Shown in pieces: positions 15,413 to 32,543 of a stretch of 39,845 nt of DNA. Where the stretch lies: the IMG/VR virus record IMGVR_UViG_3300006147_000054; one strand, 5' to 3'. The DNA comes from a virus. Both the position numbers and the translations under genes were made by a program. The notes under the pieces were generated by a model that saw only the letters and a program-made list of their open reading frames with translations, did no database searches and was not told the origin of the DNA. Numbering within the stretch: the stretch's first letter is position 1; each line of letters starts with the position of its first letter.

Positions 15413-15433
15413 TAGGTGAGAGGGAGTGTAAGT

Positions 15434-15937
15434 GTGTATCAAATCAATTTAGGGTTGCAGCCCAATCCGAGAGCTACAGCTAGGAAGGTGGACAAATTTC
15501 TGACTACTGAGTTTCAGAGATATCTTAACTTAGCTGGTTTGCACCGCAATCAACTTACAAGCCCTCAATTATCTTTTGCACCAGGATCAACAAACAAAAA
15601 TGGGGTCGAAGATAATTTCATAGATGAAGCATTAGATGATATTAATATTGCTGATCCTGCTAGGAAGGTGTGTGCAGCCATCTATAAGACAATGGATAAT
15701 TGTACTGACACCGCCTTTAAGCCCTACAGACGCATTTTAATTGGTACATATATAGATCAATTAAGGATTGTTGACGTAGCAGCAAGTGTCAACTTATCTA
15801 CTCGATCAATCGACAACAAAAAAGTCAACGCACAATGCGAATTTGCTGACCGTTGGCTGTACTGGAAGAAGTATTTTGATGTTGAAGGCTTACCTGATTT
15901 AAGAGTTTTTACTGAAAGAATTAAGACTGTTTGGTAA
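15434..15937 (+). CDS. ArpU-family late-gene transcriptional regulator (candidate)
   Basis: It is the last early gene before the packaging module. The pattern LTSPQLSFAPGS...NGVED and the size recall ArpU/Alt-type regulators. The start is either GTG 15434 (GAGGGAG upstream) or GTG 15416. Confidence 0.55.
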   Translation: MYQINLGLQPNPRATARKVDKFLTTEFQRYLNLAGLHRNQLTSPQLSFAPGSTNKNGVEDNFIDEALDDINIADPARKVCAAIYKTMDNCTDTAFKPYRRILIGTYIDQLRIVDVAASVNLSTRSIDNKKVNAQCEFADRWLYWKKYFDVEGLPDLRVFTERIKTVW

Positions 15938-15956
15938 GTTTCGGAAAAATTGGTCG

Positions 15957-16019
15957 TGCGTAAAGTATGCGTAAACCTTGCGTTCTGCTTGCGTGCAAAT
16001 CGTGTTAAATTGTTATTGT
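15957..16019 (+). promoter_or_regulatory. Candidate activator-dependent late promoter: four phased TGCGT boxes plus an extended -10
   Basis: TGCGT occurs at 15957, 15968, 15979 and 15990, exactly 11 bp apart. TGtTATTGT at 16011-16019 has no recognisable -35. Confidence 0.5.
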
Positions 16020-16145
16020 CGAAAGATTAGGTGGTAGGATCTTTCGACGACACCTCGATGATGCTATGAGTGCGGTTTTTCGAACTTAAAAATACTCCTT
16101 TCTAAAATTAATAGAAGATCTTGATTTGTGTAAGTACAAATTGAC

Positions 16146-16194
16146 TGACCGTCCTTGGTAGGCGTTAGCAGTCGTTCGATTCGGCTGGCGGTTA
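16146..16194 (+). ncRNA. tRNA-like module A (acceptor-like helix plus T-arm, no D or anticodon arms)
   Basis: TGACCGT pairs with GCGGTTA (two G-U pairs). The T-arm is CAGTCG-TTCGATT-CGGCTG at 16169-16187. Confidence 0.4.
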
Positions 16195-16277
16195 TAGCCC
16201 GAGACAGCGGGCTAATCGATGAGAGACGATAAAAAAAGACCTCTAATAAAATATTTCTCGTAGTTTCTTAATTATTC

Positions 16278-16308
16278 AAGTTAAGCAGGTTCAATTCCTG
16301 CTTGGCTT
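16278..16308 (+). ncRNA. tRNA minihelix-like hairpin (module D)
   Basis: Continuous 12-bp helix AAGTTAAGCAGG / CCTGCTTGGCTT, capped by the T-loop TTCAATT and closed by a G-C pair. Confidence 0.4.
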
Positions 16309-16463
16309 ATAGCACCTAAGCAGGTAGTCATTATCAGACTATTATGTGTAATAGTATGTAGCTTAGGTGCAACCTTCTATCGCCATGACCCCTCAACGGT
16401 TTCGAGGGAGAGCGTAGACTAAGAGCTGGTTATCTGTTCGCAGTGGACCGCAGCAGATACCGT

Positions 16464-16548
16464 GGGTAGAACGGAACACAATTTGGAATTAGAAAGAAGG
16501 CAATCTTCTTTCATAAATATCTAGCGAGGTTCGACTCCTTGCCTGCCC
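16464..16548 (+). ncRNA. tRNA-like module B (85 nt, non-canonical)
   Basis: GGGTAG pairs with CTGCCC in an acceptor-like closure. An 8-bp hairpin GAAAGAAG-GCAAT-CTTCTTTC sits where the anticodon arm would be. The T-arm is CGAGG-TTCGACT-CCTTG. No D-stem is visible. Confidence 0.35.
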
Positions 16549-16703
16549 GTTGCCTGTTGGAAAGCAGGCGTTAAGCAAATATACCTTGTCATGCAATATA
16601 TTTGCGTTTTATCCGTAATAGTAATGTACATTCACGAAAAATATATTACTTGTCGTTTAATTTACAGCATCTGGTTTAGCTCTGTGCCTTAACAGAGCAT
16701 TGT

Positions 16704-16810
16704 AGGATATAGCTAGCCATTGGTGAGCTAGGGTAGTGGCAATTCTACCGAGATATAGCTAAGTATGCCAGCAACGATTATCTCTTATTGGTTCGATTCC
16801 GGTGTATCCT
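16704..16810 (+). ncRNA. tRNA-like module C (107 nt cloverleaf-like, non-canonical)
   Basis: Acceptor AGGATAT/GTATCCT. D-arm CTAG-11 nt (with GG)-CTAG. Stem GGTAG/CTACC with the 8-nt loop TGGCAATT. A 6-bp extra arm GAGATA/TATCTC with a 23-nt loop. T-arm ATTGG-TTCGATT-CCGGT. Confidence 0.4.
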
Positions 16811-16915
16811 ATTGATTAGCTTTGTTCAATTATTATTAATCTCCGTGTGTTTCACCAAAGCTAATCTATTGGCAAAGTCCTAATTTGGACTAACATGTAT
16901 ATTAATCTCAAAATG

Positions 16916-16946
16916 TCAACTCTGTAACTTCGGAGTTGATTTTTTT
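16916..16946 (+). terminator. Strong intrinsic terminator ending the structured region
   Basis: TCAACTC / GAGTTGA stem (extendable), followed by seven T residues. Confidence 0.75.
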
Positions 16947-16971
16947 ATAATATTTTTTGAGGTGAATATAT

Positions 16972-17553
16972 ATGAATGAAGAGAAAAAAACTGTATGGGA
17001 AGATAGATTTGAAAAATTAGAAAAAAAGTTTACTGCCTTTGGTGAGAAGAGAAAAAATATAATTTATACCATTATAATAGCTGCATTTTTATTTTTTGGT
17101 AATTTTTTAATTTTTACATCACTAGAAAACTCTCAACAGGCTGGAAAGCAAAATTTTTGGATAGAAGATAGTATGATCTTTATATCCATTGCATTTTTCG
17201 TAAGTGCTATTGCACTTATTATTGTTCTTCTAGGTAATCCTCCACTAAAAGATTTATGCCTATCGATCTGTATTTTACTTAATTTAATGACCTTTGTAAC
17301 TTCTATACATGTTCCGAATCGATATTTATGGTGTACTCTAACTTGGGGTGTGACTGATTTAATTATTTCAAGATGGTTATTAATCAATATTTATAAAGCT
17401 AAAACACTTTTTACTATTACTGAAATAAAAGAAGTGCATAAATTTTCTGATAAAAATGTTGAAATAACCAAAAAACATTATCCGTTTTTATTTCCAATAA
17501 TAATAGCTTTAATAACTGCTCTAGGAACAATTATTGCAGCTTTACTAAAATAA
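16972..17553 (+). CDS. Polytopic membrane protein of unknown function, an AT-rich moron
   Basis: 193 aa with about five hydrophobic segments after a charged N-terminus. TATAAT at 16946-16951 and a GAGGTGA RBS lie upstream, and it has its own terminator downstream. It is visibly more AT-rich than its neighbours. Confidence 0.7.
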   Translation: MNEEKKTVWEDRFEKLEKKFTAFGEKRKNIIYTIIIAAFLFFGNFLIFTSLENSQQAGKQNFWIEDSMIFISIAFFVSAIALIIVLLGNPPLKDLCLSICILLNLMTFVTSIHVPNRYLWCTLTWGVTDLIISRWLLINIYKAKTLFTITEIKEVHKFSDKNVEITKKHYPFLFPIIIALITALGTIIAALLK

Positions 17554-17623: not shown

Positions 17624-18163
17624 TTGGAACGTAAGTTAACAGCTAAACAAAGGTTATTTTGTGATGAGTATATTAAGTCTGGAAATGCTAAAGACGCAGC
17701 TCTCAAAGCTGGATATTCTGCAAAAACAGCATATTCTATTGGTAATGAGAACCTGAATAAACCTGAACTTAAATCTTATATTGACGCTAAAATGGCTGAA
17801 ATTGAGTCTCATAAAATTGCTGATGCTAAAGAAGTGTTGGAATTCTACACGAAAGTACTCCGAGATGAAGTTGTTGAAGAAGTTCCAATGTCCACTGCCG
17901 ACAATGTGGTTGTAATTAAAAAGAAACCTTCTTTCAAAGACAAAATTACAGCTTCAAAAGAAATTATGAAGCGATATCCATTAGTTGATCCTATTGAGAA
18001 GCAAAAACTTAAAAAACTTATTGCAGATACTCGTATATCAGAAGCAAAGGCTACGGTTGCTGAACGTTTAGGTAGTGAAAACACTGAACAACTTGATGAT
18101 TTAATTAATAAACTTGTAGGAGAAGAAAAGAAAGATGGGACTAGATCAGATCCTAACTCATAA
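17624..18163 (+). CDS. terS: Terminase small subunit
   Basis: The N-terminus LTAKQRLFCDEYIKSGNAKDAALKAGYSAKTAYSIGNENLNKPE is the typical Terminase_2 signature. TTG start after GGTGGTGAG. Confidence 0.85.
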   Translation: MERKLTAKQRLFCDEYIKSGNAKDAALKAGYSAKTAYSIGNENLNKPELKSYIDAKMAEIESHKIADAKEVLEFYTKVLRDEVVEEVPMSTADNVVVIKKKPSFKDKITASKEIMKRYPLVDPIEKQKLKKLIADTRISEAKATVAERLGSENTEQLDDLINKLVGEEKKDGTRSDPNS

Positions 18164-29126: not shown

Positions 29127-32100
29127 ATGAGTACAATTAGTACCACCGTGAAAATTAATGATGCTTTTAGTAGTCCATTAGATAGATTATCTAGTGGTTT
29201 ACAAAAAGCTCAAAGTGGTATGAGTAAACTAAAACAAGCTATTTCTGGTGGATCTAGTGGCGGTGGTAGCATGTTCAAGTCCATGGTTGGCGGTACTGTT
29301 GTTGGTGGTGCAATTAACAAGGGAATGGAGCTAGCTGGGACTGGTATTAGGTCAATGTATGGTGAACTTGATGAAGCAAGTAAAGCTTGGCAAACATTTG
29401 AAGGAAACATGCATCAGTTAGGAAAAAGTCCTGCTGAAATTGCCACTGCTAAGAAGTCAATGCAACAATTTGCCCAACAGACAATCTATGGTGCATCAGA
29501 TATGGCAAGTACTTACTCACAATTGGCTGCTGTTGGTACAAAAAACGTGGATCAATTAGTTAGAGGTTTTGGTGGTTTAGCTGCTGCTTCTTCTAATCCA
29601 CAACAAGCTATGAAGACCTTGTCAGAGCAGGCAACTCAAATGGCTGCCAAGCCAATGGTGCAATGGCAAGACTTTAAACTTATGCTAGAACAAACTCCAG
29701 CAGGTATTTCTGCCGTTGCCAAGACAATGGGTGTAAGTACCCAGCAATTAATTAAGAACGTCCAAGATGGAAAGGTTAAAACCGAGGACTTCTTGAACGC
29801 AATAGCTAAAACAGGAACGAACGCCAACTTTACCAAAATGGCTACCCAATTCAAAACGGTTGGGCAAGCTATTGATGGTTTAAAGGAAACAATGGCTAAC
29901 AAATTGCAAGGTGCATTTGATCGCTTAGGTAAAGTTGGCATCAAATTTGTTTCTGATTTAACAGATCAACTTTCCAATGTTAATTTTGATGGATTTGTTG
30001 ATGGATTGTTTAAAGCTTTTGAAAGTTTAGAGCCTATTTTTGATAATTTAAAAAAAGGTTTTGAAGACTTTAAAAAAGGTTTCTCTGATTCTGGCGCTTT
30101 GAACTCACTAAAGGATACCTTTGAAAGTATTACAAAAGCTGTTGATAAATTAGTAAAAACGATGAGTAAGTCCAATGGTGGTGATAGCCTATTTAAACAG
30201 TTAGGTAAACTAGCTGGTGGTGCATTAGGTGGTGCTGCAAAAGCTATTTCTGGATTTGCAGAAGCATTAGGAAAATTAGACCCAGGTACAATTCAAATGT
30301 TAGCCCAAGCTTTTATCATCTTAAAAGGTGGATTGAAGGGACTATTCTTTGAAGCTGTAGTTTGGGGTTTAAAAGAACTTAATAAACTTGATCCCGGCAC
30401 AATTAAAAATATTGCAGAAGCTATAACGGCTTTAGCAGTGGCATTCACAATGTTGAAAGCCATGGGGAAAATTGGAGGCTGGATGAAAGAGGTATCAGGC
30501 TTCTTTAAAGGCCTAAAAGGGGCTAAAAAGATTAAAGCTCCTGAAATTGAGTCACCAAAAATGACTAAACCAGGTAAGATCTTAAGTAATGCTGGAGCAT
30601 ATATGAAACTGGGCGCAGCATTTGCCCTAGTTGGTGCTGGTGCATTAATGGTCGGCGCTGGATTTAAGTTGCTAGCTGATGCAGCTACTCAGATATCTAG
30701 TGCAGGTGGCGGTGCTATAGCAACATTCTTTGGAATGATTGCCGCTATTGCTGCATTAGTAGTCTTAGTTAGGTTCTTAGGCCCTGCATTGATTGGTGGA
30801 GCAATTGGTTTTGCTATTTTTGCGGCTGCGTTGCTCTTAATTGCTGTTGCTGTTTTAGTTGCTAGTGCTGGTATTGCTCTTTTAGCTACTCAACTCCCTA
30901 CTATTTCAGAATATGGGACTAGTGCAGCAGTTGGTTTACTTGCTTTAGCTGGTGCGATTGCTGTATTTGGCTTAGCCGCAATAGTTGGAGCTGTTGGAGT
31001 ACTTCTTTTAGGAGTTGCCTTAGTAGTTCTTGCAGTTGGTTTAGTTGCAGCAGGTGTTGGAGCATTAATTTTTGCTGTAGGTTTAGCCTTAGTTGGAATT
31101 ACTGCTCTAATTGCAGCTGTTGGTGTCTTACTTTTAGGAGTAGCAATTGCCTTGATTGCAGTAATGGTAGTAATTGCAGCAGTTGGAATGCTTCTATTCG
31201 GTGTGGCACTTGTCTTAGTTACAGCAATGGGGATTGTTGCTGCAATTGGCTTACTTTTGATGGGCGTTGCTTTAATGCTAATCATGGTTAGTGCAATGGT
31301 TGCTGCAGTCGGTTTAATTCTATTATCAGTAGCATTACTCTTAATTGGTCCAATGTCCTTAATCGCAGCTGTTGGATTATTGCTCTTAGGTGTTGCTTTA
31401 GTCCTAGTCATGGCGATGGGCTTAGTCGCCGCAGTTGGTATCTTGCTTTTAGGAGTTGGATTAGTTCTTGTTTCAGCTATGGCAATGGTCGCCGCAGTAG
31501 GTTTATTGTTGATGTCAGTTGCTTTAATGATGATTATGGTAACGGCGATGGTATCAGCAGTCGGGTTGATGCTTTTAGCTGTAGCTCTGGTATTAGTTGG
31601 TCCGATGGCAATGATTGCAGCAGTAGGCTTAATGCTACTAGCTGTAGCGGCAATCATGCTAGGAGCTGGATTGATGGTAGTAGCTGCTGCTGCTATGGCT
31701 GTTTCTGCTGCCTTAATTGCTGTAGGTGCTTCCGTAATGATTATGGTTTCATTCTTCATTATGGCTGGTTCTATGATGGTTTCAGCTATTACTAGCGCAA
31801 TGCACAATGTTGTTAGTGCTGTAAGAAGCGGGATTTCTAACGCTGTTAATGCTGCTAGAAGTTTCGGAAATGCTTTGGTTTCTGTTGGTAGGCAATTAAT
31901 TCAAGGTTTAGTTAACGGTATTAAATCTATGATTGGTGCAGCTGTTAGTGCCGTCCGAGGTGTGGCAAGTAAGGTAGTAAGTGCTGCTAAAAGCGTGCTT
32001 CACATTGGTTCTCCATCTAAATTATTTAGACAGTATGGTCGCTGGGTCGATCAAGGTTTAATTATTGGGTTGAATAGAGATGCTGGTGCAGCTGCTGATG

Positions 32101-32543
32101 CTTCAGCAAGTATGGCGCAAGGTGTTGTAGATGCAGCTTCTGGAATGTCTCCAACCTTAGACCCTATTGGATTAAGCGGTATAAATCCAGGAGATTTACT
32201 TGCAGCTGGATTTGATAGGGCACTGGACGCAATCAGCAATGTTGCTGGTGCAATTACTGGACTTGATGGATCAAGAGCTAATATTGGCATTTTCGGTCAA
32301 GGTGCAGTTTCTTCTAGTTCAGTTGGTAGCGATACAGTAACATCTGGCTCAATTGCTCCAAGTTCAGTATTGACTAATAACAACAGTAATAGCCAAACAG
32401 ACAATAGTACTCAAGTTCAAATTGATAAAGGCGCTATTGTCATCAATGCTTCTGGTGATCCAGATGCAGACGTAGACAAGATTTTAGACAAAATCGATCA
32501 AAAGATTATTGATAGACGTAATAAAGCTCTAGGAGGTGGTTAA
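29127..32543 (+). CDS. Tape measure protein with a greatly expanded hydrophobic repeat core
   Basis: 1138 aa, GAGGAGG RBS, located after the chaperone gene. Helical N-terminal part, about 400 aa of A/V/L/G/I/M-rich repeats, then a C-terminal region. Confidence 0.85.
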   Translation: MSTISTTVKINDAFSSPLDRLSSGLQKAQSGMSKLKQAISGGSSGGGSMFKSMVGGTVVGGAINKGMELAGTGIRSMYGELDEASKAWQTFEGNMHQLGKSPAEIATAKKSMQQFAQQTIYGASDMASTYSQLAAVGTKNVDQLVRGFGGLAAASSNPQQAMKTLSEQATQMAAKPMVQWQDFKLMLEQTPAGISAVAKTMGVSTQQLIKNVQDGKVKTEDFLNAIAKTGTNANFTKMATQFKTVGQAIDGLKETMANKLQGAFDRLGKVGIKFVSDLTDQLSNVNFDGFVDGLFKAFESLEPIFDNLKKGFEDFKKGFSDSGALNSLKDTFESITKAVDKLVKTMSKSNGGDSLFKQLGKLAGGALGGAAKAISGFAEALGKLDPGTIQMLAQAFIILKGGLKGLFFEAVVWGLKELNKLDPGTIKNIAEAITALAVAFTMLKAMGKIGGWMKEVSGFFKGLKGAKKIKAPEIESPKMTKPGKILSNAGAYMKLGAAFALVGAGALMVGAGFKLLADAATQISSAGGGAIATFFGMIAAIAALVVLVRFLGPALIGGAIGFAIFAAALLLIAVAVLVASAGIALLATQLPTISEYGTSAAVGLLALAGAIAVFGLAAIVGAVGVLLLGVALVVLAVGLVAAGVGALIFAVGLALVGITALIAAVGVLLLGVAIALIAVMVVIAAVGMLLFGVALVLVTAMGIVAAIGLLLMGVALMLIMVSAMVAAVGLILLSVALLLIGPMSLIAAVGLLLLGVALVLVMAMGLVAAVGILLLGVGLVLVSAMAMVAAVGLLLMSVALMMIMVTAMVSAVGLMLLAVALVLVGPMAMIAAVGLMLLAVAAIMLGAGLMVVAAAAMAVSAALIAVGASVMIMVSFFIMAGSMMVSAITSAMHNVVSAVRSGISNAVNAARSFGNALVSVGRQLIQGLVNGIKSMIGAAVSAVRGVASKVVSAAKSVLHIGSPSKLFRQYGRWVDQGLIIGLNRDAGAAADASASMAQGVVDAASGMSPTLDPIGLSGINPGDLLAAGFDRALDAISNVAGAITGLDGSRANIGIFGQGAVSSSSVGSDTVTSGSIAPSSVLTNNNSNSQTDNSTQVQIDKGAIVINASGDPDADVDKILDKIDQKIIDRRNKALGGG
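30921..31739 (+). repeat. Thirteen in-frame tandem 63-bp (21-aa) repeats within the tape measure gene
   Basis: Units of the type IAAVGxLLLGVALVLVxAMxx begin every 63 nt. I checked the phase at 31110, 31173, 31236, 31299 and 31614. The flanking units are more degenerate. Confidence 0.8.

Follow-up and report, generated by a model that had tools for sequence, protein, structure and literature searches.

Among the structured non-coding RNAs of phages, GOLLD and ROOL are several hundred nucleotides (nt) long, occur in prophages of Lactobacillales beside tRNA islands, with which they are probably co-transcribed, and have no known function (PMC5737381, PMC12286853). The analysis described here concerns positions 15938-16971 of a 39,845-nt stretch of viral DNA (IMG/VR virus record IMGVR_UViG_3300006147_000054; the whole stretch is referred to below as the window), an Lj771-like prophage of the Lactobacillus johnsonii/gasseri group. 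An earlier note, made from the letters of this DNA alone, had singled out the region as a kilobase free of open reading frames (ORFs) and dense in helices, and had proposed that it encodes a giant structured RNA, either a divergent member of GOLLD or ROOL or a new class. The best reading of the comparative data presented below is that the region encodes an undescribed phage RNA family that matches no family of Rfam 15. It is best grouped with the tRNA-like elements, and with the RNAs that accompany tRNA operons, of other phages.

The tRNA-like domains of tmRNA and YrlA combine an acceptor, a T-arm and a D-loop in one unit without an anticodon arm, and the mascRNA-menRNA family, which represents the tRNA-like ends of MALAT1 and MEN-beta, comprises tRNA-like RNA that is cut by RNase P and RNase Z. 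In phage T4, RNAC and RNAD are encoded with the tRNA genes and are matured by tRNA-processing enzymes. These species 1 and 2 stable RNAs are small and expressed late, and their function is unknown (PMC9697503). In plant mitochondria, t-elements, which were found via the motif GGTTCRANYCC, direct cuts by RNase P and RNase Z in longer transcripts and define the ends of mRNAs (PMC1920247).

Coding status, conserved fold and known RNA families

The region is non-coding. The longest ORF within 15938-16971 on either strand is 36 amino acids (aa), which bears out the description of an ORF-free kilobase. Across homologs, the variability of alignment columns at the three codon positions is 0.155/0.162/0.145 and the period-3 power ratio is 1.1, as compared with a variability of 0.04/0.04/0.21 and a period-3 spectral power of 140 times the median in the adjacent activator gene; the codon-like conservation that the earlier note had named as a sign against an RNA is absent from the region and strong next to it. 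The first 776 nt of the region are 97% identical to prophage Lj771, and the identity with prophage Lj965 and phages phi jlb1 and KC5a is 72-77%. In all four, the homologous stretch lies directly 3' of a gene annotated as “transcriptional activator” and carries no credible annotation in the public records, a hypothetical “orf28” spanning it in KC5a. This hypothetical protein (locus L004, 1967-2251) and gp45 of L. jensenii phage Lv-1 (L110, 1381-1569) overlap or run into the conserved RNA, and both are probably spurious calls, since neither codon periodicity nor a conserved ORF is found there.

Base pairing was assessed on a consensus alignment of 22 sequences, whose mutual identity is below 96% and whose identity with the window is 62-97%. 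The RNAalifold prediction comprises 17 helices with 115 pairs, in which 97.9% of the cells are standard pairs, compared with 33-47% when the 3' partners are slid by 1-3 columns. Compensatory double changes occur in 32 of the pairs; the slid controls have 1-9 such pairs and shuffles 16.9 +/- 2.3, and none of 500 shuffles reached the observed number. The consensus fold consists mostly of local hairpins and tRNA-like junctions, and its single long-range helix is 4 bp long and lies where the alignment is poor. A covariance model of the 196-nt core (R1; 16374-16572) recovers full-length matches in the clade of phage Lv-1 (E 1e-9 to 1e-6) and in the L145 clade (E 2.6e-9), and a marginal match in phage LL-H (E 0.013). 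With the jensenii and L145 clades added, 26 of the 47 core pairs covary on an alignment fitted to the model, compared with 2-8 in slid controls.

The strand that carries the structure cannot be read from folding energy alone, because both strands fold better than dinucleotide shuffles (minimum free energy z-scores for 16015-16705 of -4.5 for the plus strand and -8.0 for the minus strand). For this reason, the asymmetry between G-U and A-C combinations was used. Paired cells contain 322 G-U against 30 A-C, and at ten of the pairs G-U prevails in the majority of sequences, which assigns the structure to the RNA of the plus strand rather than to the DNA or the other strand. Together with the compensatory changes, this asymmetry sustains the earlier proposal of a structured plus-strand RNA.

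A search of the window against all of Rfam 15, as proposed in the earlier note, gives no family match at the gathering score. The GOLLD (RF01998) and ROOL (RF03087) models match neither 15700-17200 at E<=10 nor nine homologous loci, drawn from four clades, at E<=5, nor 24 further loci at the gathering score, so that the suggested membership in either family finds no support in the window or its homologs even at permissive E-values. In the window and 33 related loci, only genuine tRNAs score above threshold in the noncoding regions downstream of the activators, and no match to the tmRNA and Y-RNA families is found in the window or the homologous loci. In the literature available to the search, neither an account of this RNA nor a transcript map of Lj965, Lj771, LL-H or a related phage was found.

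What this RNA and GOLLD or ROOL share is the context of a prophage, beside a tRNA island (PMC5737381, PMC12286853). The GOLLD-like or ROOL-like association with tRNAs was anticipated correctly, as real tRNAs directly follow the homologous region in relatives. Unlike GOLLD and ROOL, however, this RNA is a row of tRNA-like modules and hairpins, contains no supported pseudoknot and lacks large blocks in natural variants. An architecture of the ROOL type is not seen: the 17 helices are mostly local, and the pseudoknot proposed in the earlier note, in which a loop AGGTG would pair with CACCT, is rejected, as it is disrupted in five lineages by one-sided changes without compensation.

tRNA-like modules, core hairpin and spacer hairpins

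The four T-arm hairpins pointed out in the earlier note exist and are very unlikely to be due to chance. When a strict T-arm descriptor, which demands a loop of the form T[T/G]C[A/G]ANN on a 5-bp stem with G-C as its closing pair, is applied to both strands of the whole window, it gives four matches, all on the plus strand and all in the region, with T-loops starting at 16175, 16290, 16530 and 16792. The corresponding modules and the core hairpin are as follows.

16147-16194, plus strand: tRNA-like module 1, with an acceptor-like stem, a D-loop-like CC-UUGGUA-GG and a T-arm with the loop UUCGAUU at 16175-16181
16278-16309, plus strand: tRNA-like module 2, a 12-bp acceptor/T-arm minihelix capped by the T-loop UUCAAUU
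16377-16417, plus strand: core hairpin resembling a kink turn (k-turn), the block with the highest conservation among the johnsonii, gasseri and jensenii clades
16462-16550, plus strand: tRNA-like module 3, with an acceptor-like stem of 8 bp that stacks on a T-arm of 6 bp (loop UUCGACU at 16530-16536)
16703-16812, plus strand: tRNA-like module 4, a full cloverleaf in the consensus fold of 6 variants, with a variable arm that is long and with UGGCAAUU as its 8-nt “anticodon” loop

Acceptor pairing in the modules of the window is 6-7/7, reaching 7/7 in module 1 and, adjacent to the T-arm, in module 2; both modules are without an anticodon arm. In module 1, helices 3-5 of the consensus fold are 98.5-100% paired, and the acceptor changes from ACCGTC/GGCGGT to ACCAAG/CTTGGT in the jensenii clade, with three compensatory pairs; in module 2, compensatory changes affect 8 of the 11 pairs of helix 7. 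The stems of module 3 correspond to helices 13-15 of the consensus fold and to helices 4-6 of the extended core alignment, and the hairpin 16492-16512, which takes the position of an anticodon arm, has a loop that is not conserved. Module 4 fills the slot of tRNA-Gln in Lj771 and KC5a. None of the modules in the window encodes CCA. ARAGORN reports 0 tRNA genes in the window, and the best Rfam tRNA scores are below threshold (17.9 bits for tRNA, RF00005, with a threshold of 29; 21.6 bits for module 4 against tRNA-Sec, with a threshold of 47); modules 1 and 3 are called neither by ARAGORN nor by the Rfam tRNA models.

The same pattern extends to relatives. Among 54 loci with related activators, the plus strand of the 97 kb downstream of the activator holds 132 T-arms, while the remaining 572 kb hold 3, an enrichment of roughly 260-fold, and about two thirds of the 132 are not ARAGORN tRNAs. 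In 49 distinct non-tRNA modules, full acceptor-like pairing (7/7) is found in 55%, compared with 17% for shuffled 3' strands, and the four bases that follow the acceptor strand are nearly always N-T-W-G, after which comes a GC-rich hairpin or a k-turn-like hairpin. Genuine tRNAs of the same arrays likewise have no encoded CCA and carry the same trailers of N-T-W-G and a hairpin.

With canonical tRNAs the modules thus have in common the T-arm, the acceptor stem, the D-loop-like GG and the CCA-less trailers of the neighboring real tRNAs; they differ in their sub-threshold scores and in an anticodon arm that is absent or has a non-conserved or 8-nt loop. The design without an anticodon arm is that of the tRNA-like domains of tmRNA and YrlA. 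As in t-elements and mascRNA, a non-decoding tRNA shape, with a canonical T-arm stacked on an acceptor-like stem, is placed within a longer transcript, and one module of locus L149 gives a sub-threshold match to mascRNA-menRNA. In contrast to those elements, the modules here form series of three to five within a late transcript of the phage, with genuine tRNAs and a k-turn-like hairpin interspersed, and cleavage of the modules is predicted. RNAC and RNAD of T4 set a precedent as late phage RNAs without a known function; compared by description, they are two short RNAs, whereas the present element is a conserved 0.7-kb array with a shared core, and the host and the promoter logic differ as well.

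In the arrays of relatives, ARAGORN also reports tRNAs with 2-nt or 4-nt “anticodons”, that is, with 6- or 8-nt loops (L001, 2198-2268; L149, 4309-4388; L150, 2068-2147; L152, 4630-4705; L116, 4448-4520). Those of L150 and L152 have 8-nt loops, as in module 4. These tRNAs could be quadruplet or otherwise odd decoders, or further non-decoding mimics.

The core hairpin is composed, from 5' to 3', of a C-helix strand CUAUCGC, a bulge CAU, GA, C, an NC-helix strand CCCUC, the loop AACGGUUUC, GAGGG, A, GA and GCGUAG. Both flanking helices are conserved or covarying, with covariation in 4 of the 7 pairs of the C-helix. A pattern GCSAUGAC-hairpin-(A/C)GAGCG follows tRNA-like modules in LL-H, L149, L150, L152 and the jensenii clade. 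The layout of 16377-16417 agrees with the sequence pattern of a k-turn (C-helix, 3-nt bulge, tandem G.A/A.G pairs, NC-helix), which makes it a candidate k-turn. A further match of the form TCGCCATGAC...AGAGC, containing the same 10-mer as the core hairpin, is present on the minus strand at 31380-31420 (at 31409); it lies in the repetitive coding sequence of a 1138-aa ORF (29127-32543) and was judged to be due to chance rather than a second copy of the core.

Between and around the modules, the following hairpins and linkers are found.

16018-16048, plus strand: 11-bp hairpin P1 (consensus helix 1), with 97.9% of cells paired and compensatory change in 2 pairs
16121-16144, plus strand: local hairpin of 8-10 bp, which folds in every subclade and covaries
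16195-16214, plus strand: trailer hairpin GCCCG/CGGGC after module 1 (helix 6), preceded by the tail AUAG
16215-16277, plus strand: AT-rich linker, variable in length and sequence, with the lowest conservation of the region (0.37-0.38)
16312-16370, plus strand: long hairpin GCACCUAAGC/GCUUAGGUGC around an inner hairpin (helices 8 and 9), preceded by the tail AUAG
16428-16461, plus strand: 12-bp hairpin (helix 12 of the consensus fold, helix 3 of the extended core alignment) with 7 of 12 pairs compensatory once the jensenii and L145 clades are included
16551-16570, plus strand: trailer hairpin after module 3 (helix 16), with the tail GUUG
16571-16678, plus strand: variable AT-rich stretch (conservation 0.41-0.54) that holds the hairpin 16575-83/16597-16605
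16679-16698, plus strand: pre-tRNA leader hairpin GCUCUGU/ACAGAGC (helix 17), 99.4% paired
16814-16866, plus strand: spacer hairpin GAUUAGCUUUG/CAAAGCUAAUC, a perfect 11 bp

Several of these hairpins are retained while their sequences change. An analogous hairpin occupies the position of P1 in the jensenii clade; the stem at 16121-16144 reads UUGAUUUGUG/UACAAAUUGA in some subclades and UUAAUUUGUU/AACAGAUUAA in others; GCCCG/CGGGC of helix 6 alternates with GCCUG/CAGGC; and helix 16 is compensatory in 4 of its 6 pairs in the 22-sequence alignment and in 5 of 6 with the jensenii and L145 clades. The inner part of 16312-16370 allows two mutually exclusive pairings (16323-29/16337-43 or 16339-54), and the stretch 16571-16678 is replaced or deleted in the gasseri-type subclade. 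In relatives, tRNA-Gln, tRNA-Phe or another tRNA directly follows the leader hairpin, of which Lj965 has two copies ahead of tRNA-Phe.

All six helices that the earlier note had listed as examples are perfect complements, and four of them (16018-27/16039-48, 16195-16214, 16312-21/16361-70 and 16679-85/16692-98) are part of the consensus fold of the 22 homologs. A fifth, 16814-24/16856-66, recurs as a spacer hairpin after a tRNA or tRNA-like gene in Lj965 and phi jlb1, whereas the sixth, 16575-83/16597-16605, although a perfect complement, is lineage-specific and confined to a poorly conserved AT-rich stretch. The long-range helix proposed by RNAalifold (16131-34/16648-51, with two-state covariation) was set aside: its 5' strand coincides with the loop of a local hairpin that is itself well supported, and its 3' strand is poorly aligned. 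A chance origin is easy to envisage, since a complementary 4-mer is readily found in an AT-rich stretch.

Transcription unit, neighboring genes and relatives

The unit is framed by the following features.

15416-15937, plus strand: gene of an ArpU-family late transcriptional activator, the upstream neighbor in all clades
15957-15994, plus strand: four direct TGCGT boxes (starts at 15957, 15968, 15979 and 15990; 11-bp spacing), candidate binding sites of the activator
16004-16012, plus strand: extended -10 element TGTTAAATT, with the -10 hexamer at 16007-16012
16915-16946, plus strand: intrinsic terminator, a 10-bp stem (16915-16940) followed by TTTTTTT
16972-17553: 193-aa ORF between the RNA unit and terS, hydrophobic and membrane-spanning in look (by eye only)
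17624-18163: terS (Terminase_2)

The ArpU family comprises regulators of phage packaging and lysis. The activator matches PHROG 248 (“transcriptional activator”) with an E-value of 5e-32 and scores 39.1 bits against TIGR01637 (phage_arpU), just below the cut-off of 43.1, while its homolog of the L. jensenii type reaches 82 bits. Downstream of it, a conserved extended -10 of the form TGNTAAATT is present; among the 38 distinct homologous sequences, TAAATT is invariant in those that cover the -10, and most homologs have TG two bases 5' of it. A simple sigma-70 scan does not detect this promoter, which it overlooks because there is no -35. In relatives with other types of activators (only 26-62% identical), the four boxes read CGGAC, TTGCAG or TATGTT at unchanged spacing and position, and the -10 and the following GTATTGTCGA are constant while the boxes vary; such box switching at the same position is seen in L020, L030, L049, L025, L014, L106 and L001. 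Because the boxes vary together with the type of activator, there is good evidence that the unit begins at an activator-dependent late promoter of the ArpU type, to which binding of the activator is predicted. Activator genes and their operator boxes seem to be exchanged together, as cassettes, upstream of an RNA that stays the same. The transcription start is inferred to be near 16019-16021.

At the other end, a terminator scan recovers 16915-16946, and terminator-like hairpins likewise close the unit in Lj771, phi jlb1 and the jensenii clade. The candidate late promoter and the strong terminator that the earlier note had placed at the two ends of the segment thus both hold up. Its placement of the region between the late regulator and terS is correct with respect to the regulator, which adjoins the region, but terS is not adjacent, since the 193-aa ORF intervenes. 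This ORF matches no Pfam or PHROG family and sits in a stretch with a G+C content of 0.25-0.28, compared with 0.36-0.45 around it. In relatives, the same slot holds other genes, such as those of a methyltransferase and a ParB-like nuclease, and for this reason it looks like an exchangeable cargo slot.

Relatives of the element were collected in several ways. Two conserved blocks, used for exact-word scans of viral contigs, located the element at 41 loci, a protein-anchored scan with the activator gave 78 loci, a scan of metagenomes with the invariant core added 26 members and no new clade, and a scan of genome contigs with the activator alignment gave one locus only. Homologs follow the late activator in phages of L. 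johnsonii, L. gasseri and L. jensenii and in several unassigned clades, the order of modules being conserved from the johnsonii to the jensenii clade, and more distant versions are present in the L. delbrueckii phages LL-H and phiJB. In the virulent phage LL-H, a 1-kb unannotated gap between the activator ORF172 and terS (L189, 204-1229) contains five strict T-arm matches, four of them with typical GGTTCGA-type loops, together with two k-turn-like hairpins and no tRNA gene. The tRNA-like array is absent from other loci, in which the activators are more distantly related.

Natural variants lack defined parts of the unit. A short variant (L006, L109 and L121) is missing 245 nt that cover modules 1-2, the 3' part is replaced by tRNA-Phe in L016 and is replaced in L129 as well, and the first 140 nt at the 5' end alone are kept in L122. 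Such deletion or replacement variants, which also include L136, come from several independent contigs.

The salivarius-1 RNA (RF03030) was found above threshold upstream of the activator in three loci (L174, 2246-2302 and 2391-2446; L176, 2526-2581; L183, 2447-2502). The activator of these loci is about 27% identical to that of the window, and no tRNA-like array follows it, L183 having one isolated T-arm.

Processing model, alternatives and implications

The best explanation of these data, which is given somewhat better than an even chance, is an extended phage tRNA operon of tRNA mimics that is processed at the mimics. According to this model, approximately 16019-16946 of the plus strand would form a non-coding transcription unit of the phage late program, in which an activator of the ArpU family would bind the four helically phased boxes and fire the -35-less promoter, and the transcript would run on to the intrinsic terminator. 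Several “tRNA slots” would hold mimics that keep the T-arm and the acceptor-like stem and have no usable anticodon arm, the best preserved of them also keeping the D-loop-like GG, and spacer hairpins, one of them the invariant k-turn-like hairpin, would separate the slots. Host RNase P on the 5' side and host RNase Z on the 3' side would cut at each mimic as at a tRNA, and the cleavage would release mini tRNA-shaped RNAs and the intervening hairpins, including a piece of about 150 nt (16310-16461) that contains the core. The preferred guess is that the products may engage host factors that bind tRNAs or k-turns late in infection, as decoys or helpers. These components differ in strength: the structural and family-level statements are very likely, the processing by RNase P and RNase Z, predicted from the tRNA-like anatomy, is about as probable as not, and any specific function of the products is speculative.

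Cleavage by these two enzymes is the most likely fate of the transcript, because the mimics share with the genuine tRNAs a CCA-less trailer composed of the discriminator, U, A/U, G and a hairpin. CCA is not encoded in one third of the tRNA genes of Bacillus subtilis, where RNase Z cleaves 3' of the discriminator and is blocked if CCA is present; the native substrates of this enzyme include one in which the trailer U74-A75 leads into a stem-loop, and where the leader is long, RNase P is the first enzyme to act (PMC1874595). With their CCA-less N-U-W-G and a hairpin, the module trailers resemble this native substrate (PMC1874595). In addition, the linear series of modules and the variants that lack blocks look more like an extended, processed operon of the tRNA type than one interdependent 1-kb fold.

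Several points weigh against this model. The transcript, its start and its processing are all deduced, because no expression or end-mapping data were found for members of the family. The conserved order of the modules and the invariant core could equally fit an intact RNA as the functional species, and the model does not account for a possible role in cis-regulation, which is suggested by the strong terminator immediately ahead of the late genes. The benefit of the mimics may be small, because the deletion variants show modules 1-2 to be dispensable. As for the underlying evidence, the count of covarying core pairs leans toward the model R1, since the alignment was fitted to its structure, and the independent events are fewer than the cell counts suggest, because most of the covariation separates few subclades. 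A relaxed k-turn descriptor is only about 3.6-fold enriched in these leaders, and a strict one misses the window's own copy and those of LL-H.

The same observations may be read as one large ornate RNA, in which an intact transcript of about 0.7-0.9 kb adopts a single fold or a homo-oligomeric assembly like ROOL or GOLLD. Large RNAs often use T-loops and k-turns as architectural motifs, and here the two would be structural building blocks rather than processing signals; an invariant loop in the core hairpin is what one would expect of a tertiary contact, and the constancy of module order from the johnsonii to the jensenii clade fits as well. The genomic context, a prophage beside a tRNA island, is that of GOLLD and ROOL (PMC5737381, PMC12286853). 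However, neither the GOLLD nor the ROOL model matches, the fold is made up of local hairpins and tRNA-like junctions with a sole long-range helix of 4 bp in poor alignment, and the proposed pseudoknot fails. Natural variants also drop 245 nt with modules 1-2, swap the 3' part or retain the first 140 nt, and module trailers are the same as the trailers found on real, processed tRNAs, so that a single ornate RNA is considered an unlikely outcome, if one to be taken seriously. Somewhat less probable still is a cis-acting leader of the late operon, which would govern read-through of the terminator at 16915-16946 by processive antitermination or attenuation. The RNA always lies between the activator-dependent promoter and the packaging genes, and in several clades a terminator divides it from the first late ORF. 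Known RNA antiterminators, however, are much smaller than 700 nt, and the genes downstream vary among relatives (membrane protein, methyltransferase, ParB-like nuclease, terS). In another form of this explanation, cleavage of the tRNA type would merely define and stabilize the 5' end of the late mRNA, as plant mitochondrial t-elements set mRNA ends (PMC1920247), but 700 nt with four tRNA mimics far exceed what the definition of an end requires.

Decay of a tRNA array, with modules that are drifting tRNA pseudogenes, have lost their anticodon arms and have no function of their own, would account for the real tRNA genes directly downstream in relatives, for module 4 in the slot of tRNA-Gln, for the aberrant ARAGORN tRNAs with 6- or 8-nt anticodon loops in the arrays and for the dispensability of some parts. 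It is nonetheless very improbable: compensatory changes keep the stems, the T-loops are intact across clades whose flanks no longer align, the same anticodon-less designs are found in johnsonii, jensenii and delbrueckii phages, including the virulent and tRNA-less LL-H, and the most conserved part is the k-turn core, which is not a tRNA element. Inverted repeats of a DNA-level element, such as a packaging site, a replication origin or an attachment site, might also mimic RNA helices; the position just upstream of the terminase genes and the folding of both strands better than shuffles are compatible with such an element. The roughly tenfold excess of G-U over A-C in paired cells and the restriction of the T-loop consensus to one strand speak for RNA instead, and the end of the linear genome of phage Lv-1 lies beyond the next two genes. 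Attachment sites normally adjoin the integrase gene, whereas the integrase is not adjacent to the region in any locus examined. A DNA-level element is therefore hardly credible.

Phage tRNA islands and their companion RNAs, among them GOLLD, ROOL and RNAC/RNAD of T4, present a long-standing puzzle, being abundant and conserved and having no known function. The locus described here adds a family with a readable anatomy, which includes an activator-dependent promoter, mimics and an invariant k-turn-like hairpin. The mimics keep those parts of a tRNA that are recognized by RNase P, RNase Z and the CCA-adding enzyme (the stack of acceptor and T-arm, and the elbow), while the decoding part is dropped. 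The family also accounts for an “empty” kilobase that is unannotated or filled with spurious ORFs in the records of LL-H, KC5a and Lv-1, and indicates that, of the tRNA-shaped elements that these arrays contain, standard tRNA finders overlook about two thirds. Members are present in tractable systems, namely the virulent phage LL-H, phi adh/jlb1, and lysogens of L. johnsonii and L. gasseri, and the natural variants provide a ready-made series for asking which modules matter.

A broader interpretation, offered tentatively and with clearly more doubt than confidence, is that the family constitutes a third, independent class of large phage RNAs of tRNA islands, in which anticodon-less mimics arranged around an invariant k-turn core would be made in bulk late in infection and act in trans on host machinery that handles tRNAs or binds k-turns. 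If this is true, the RNA might serve as a decoy for defense toxins that target tRNA acceptors or for tRNA-processing enzymes; a self-assembling RNA or ribonucleoprotein particle would be another possibility.

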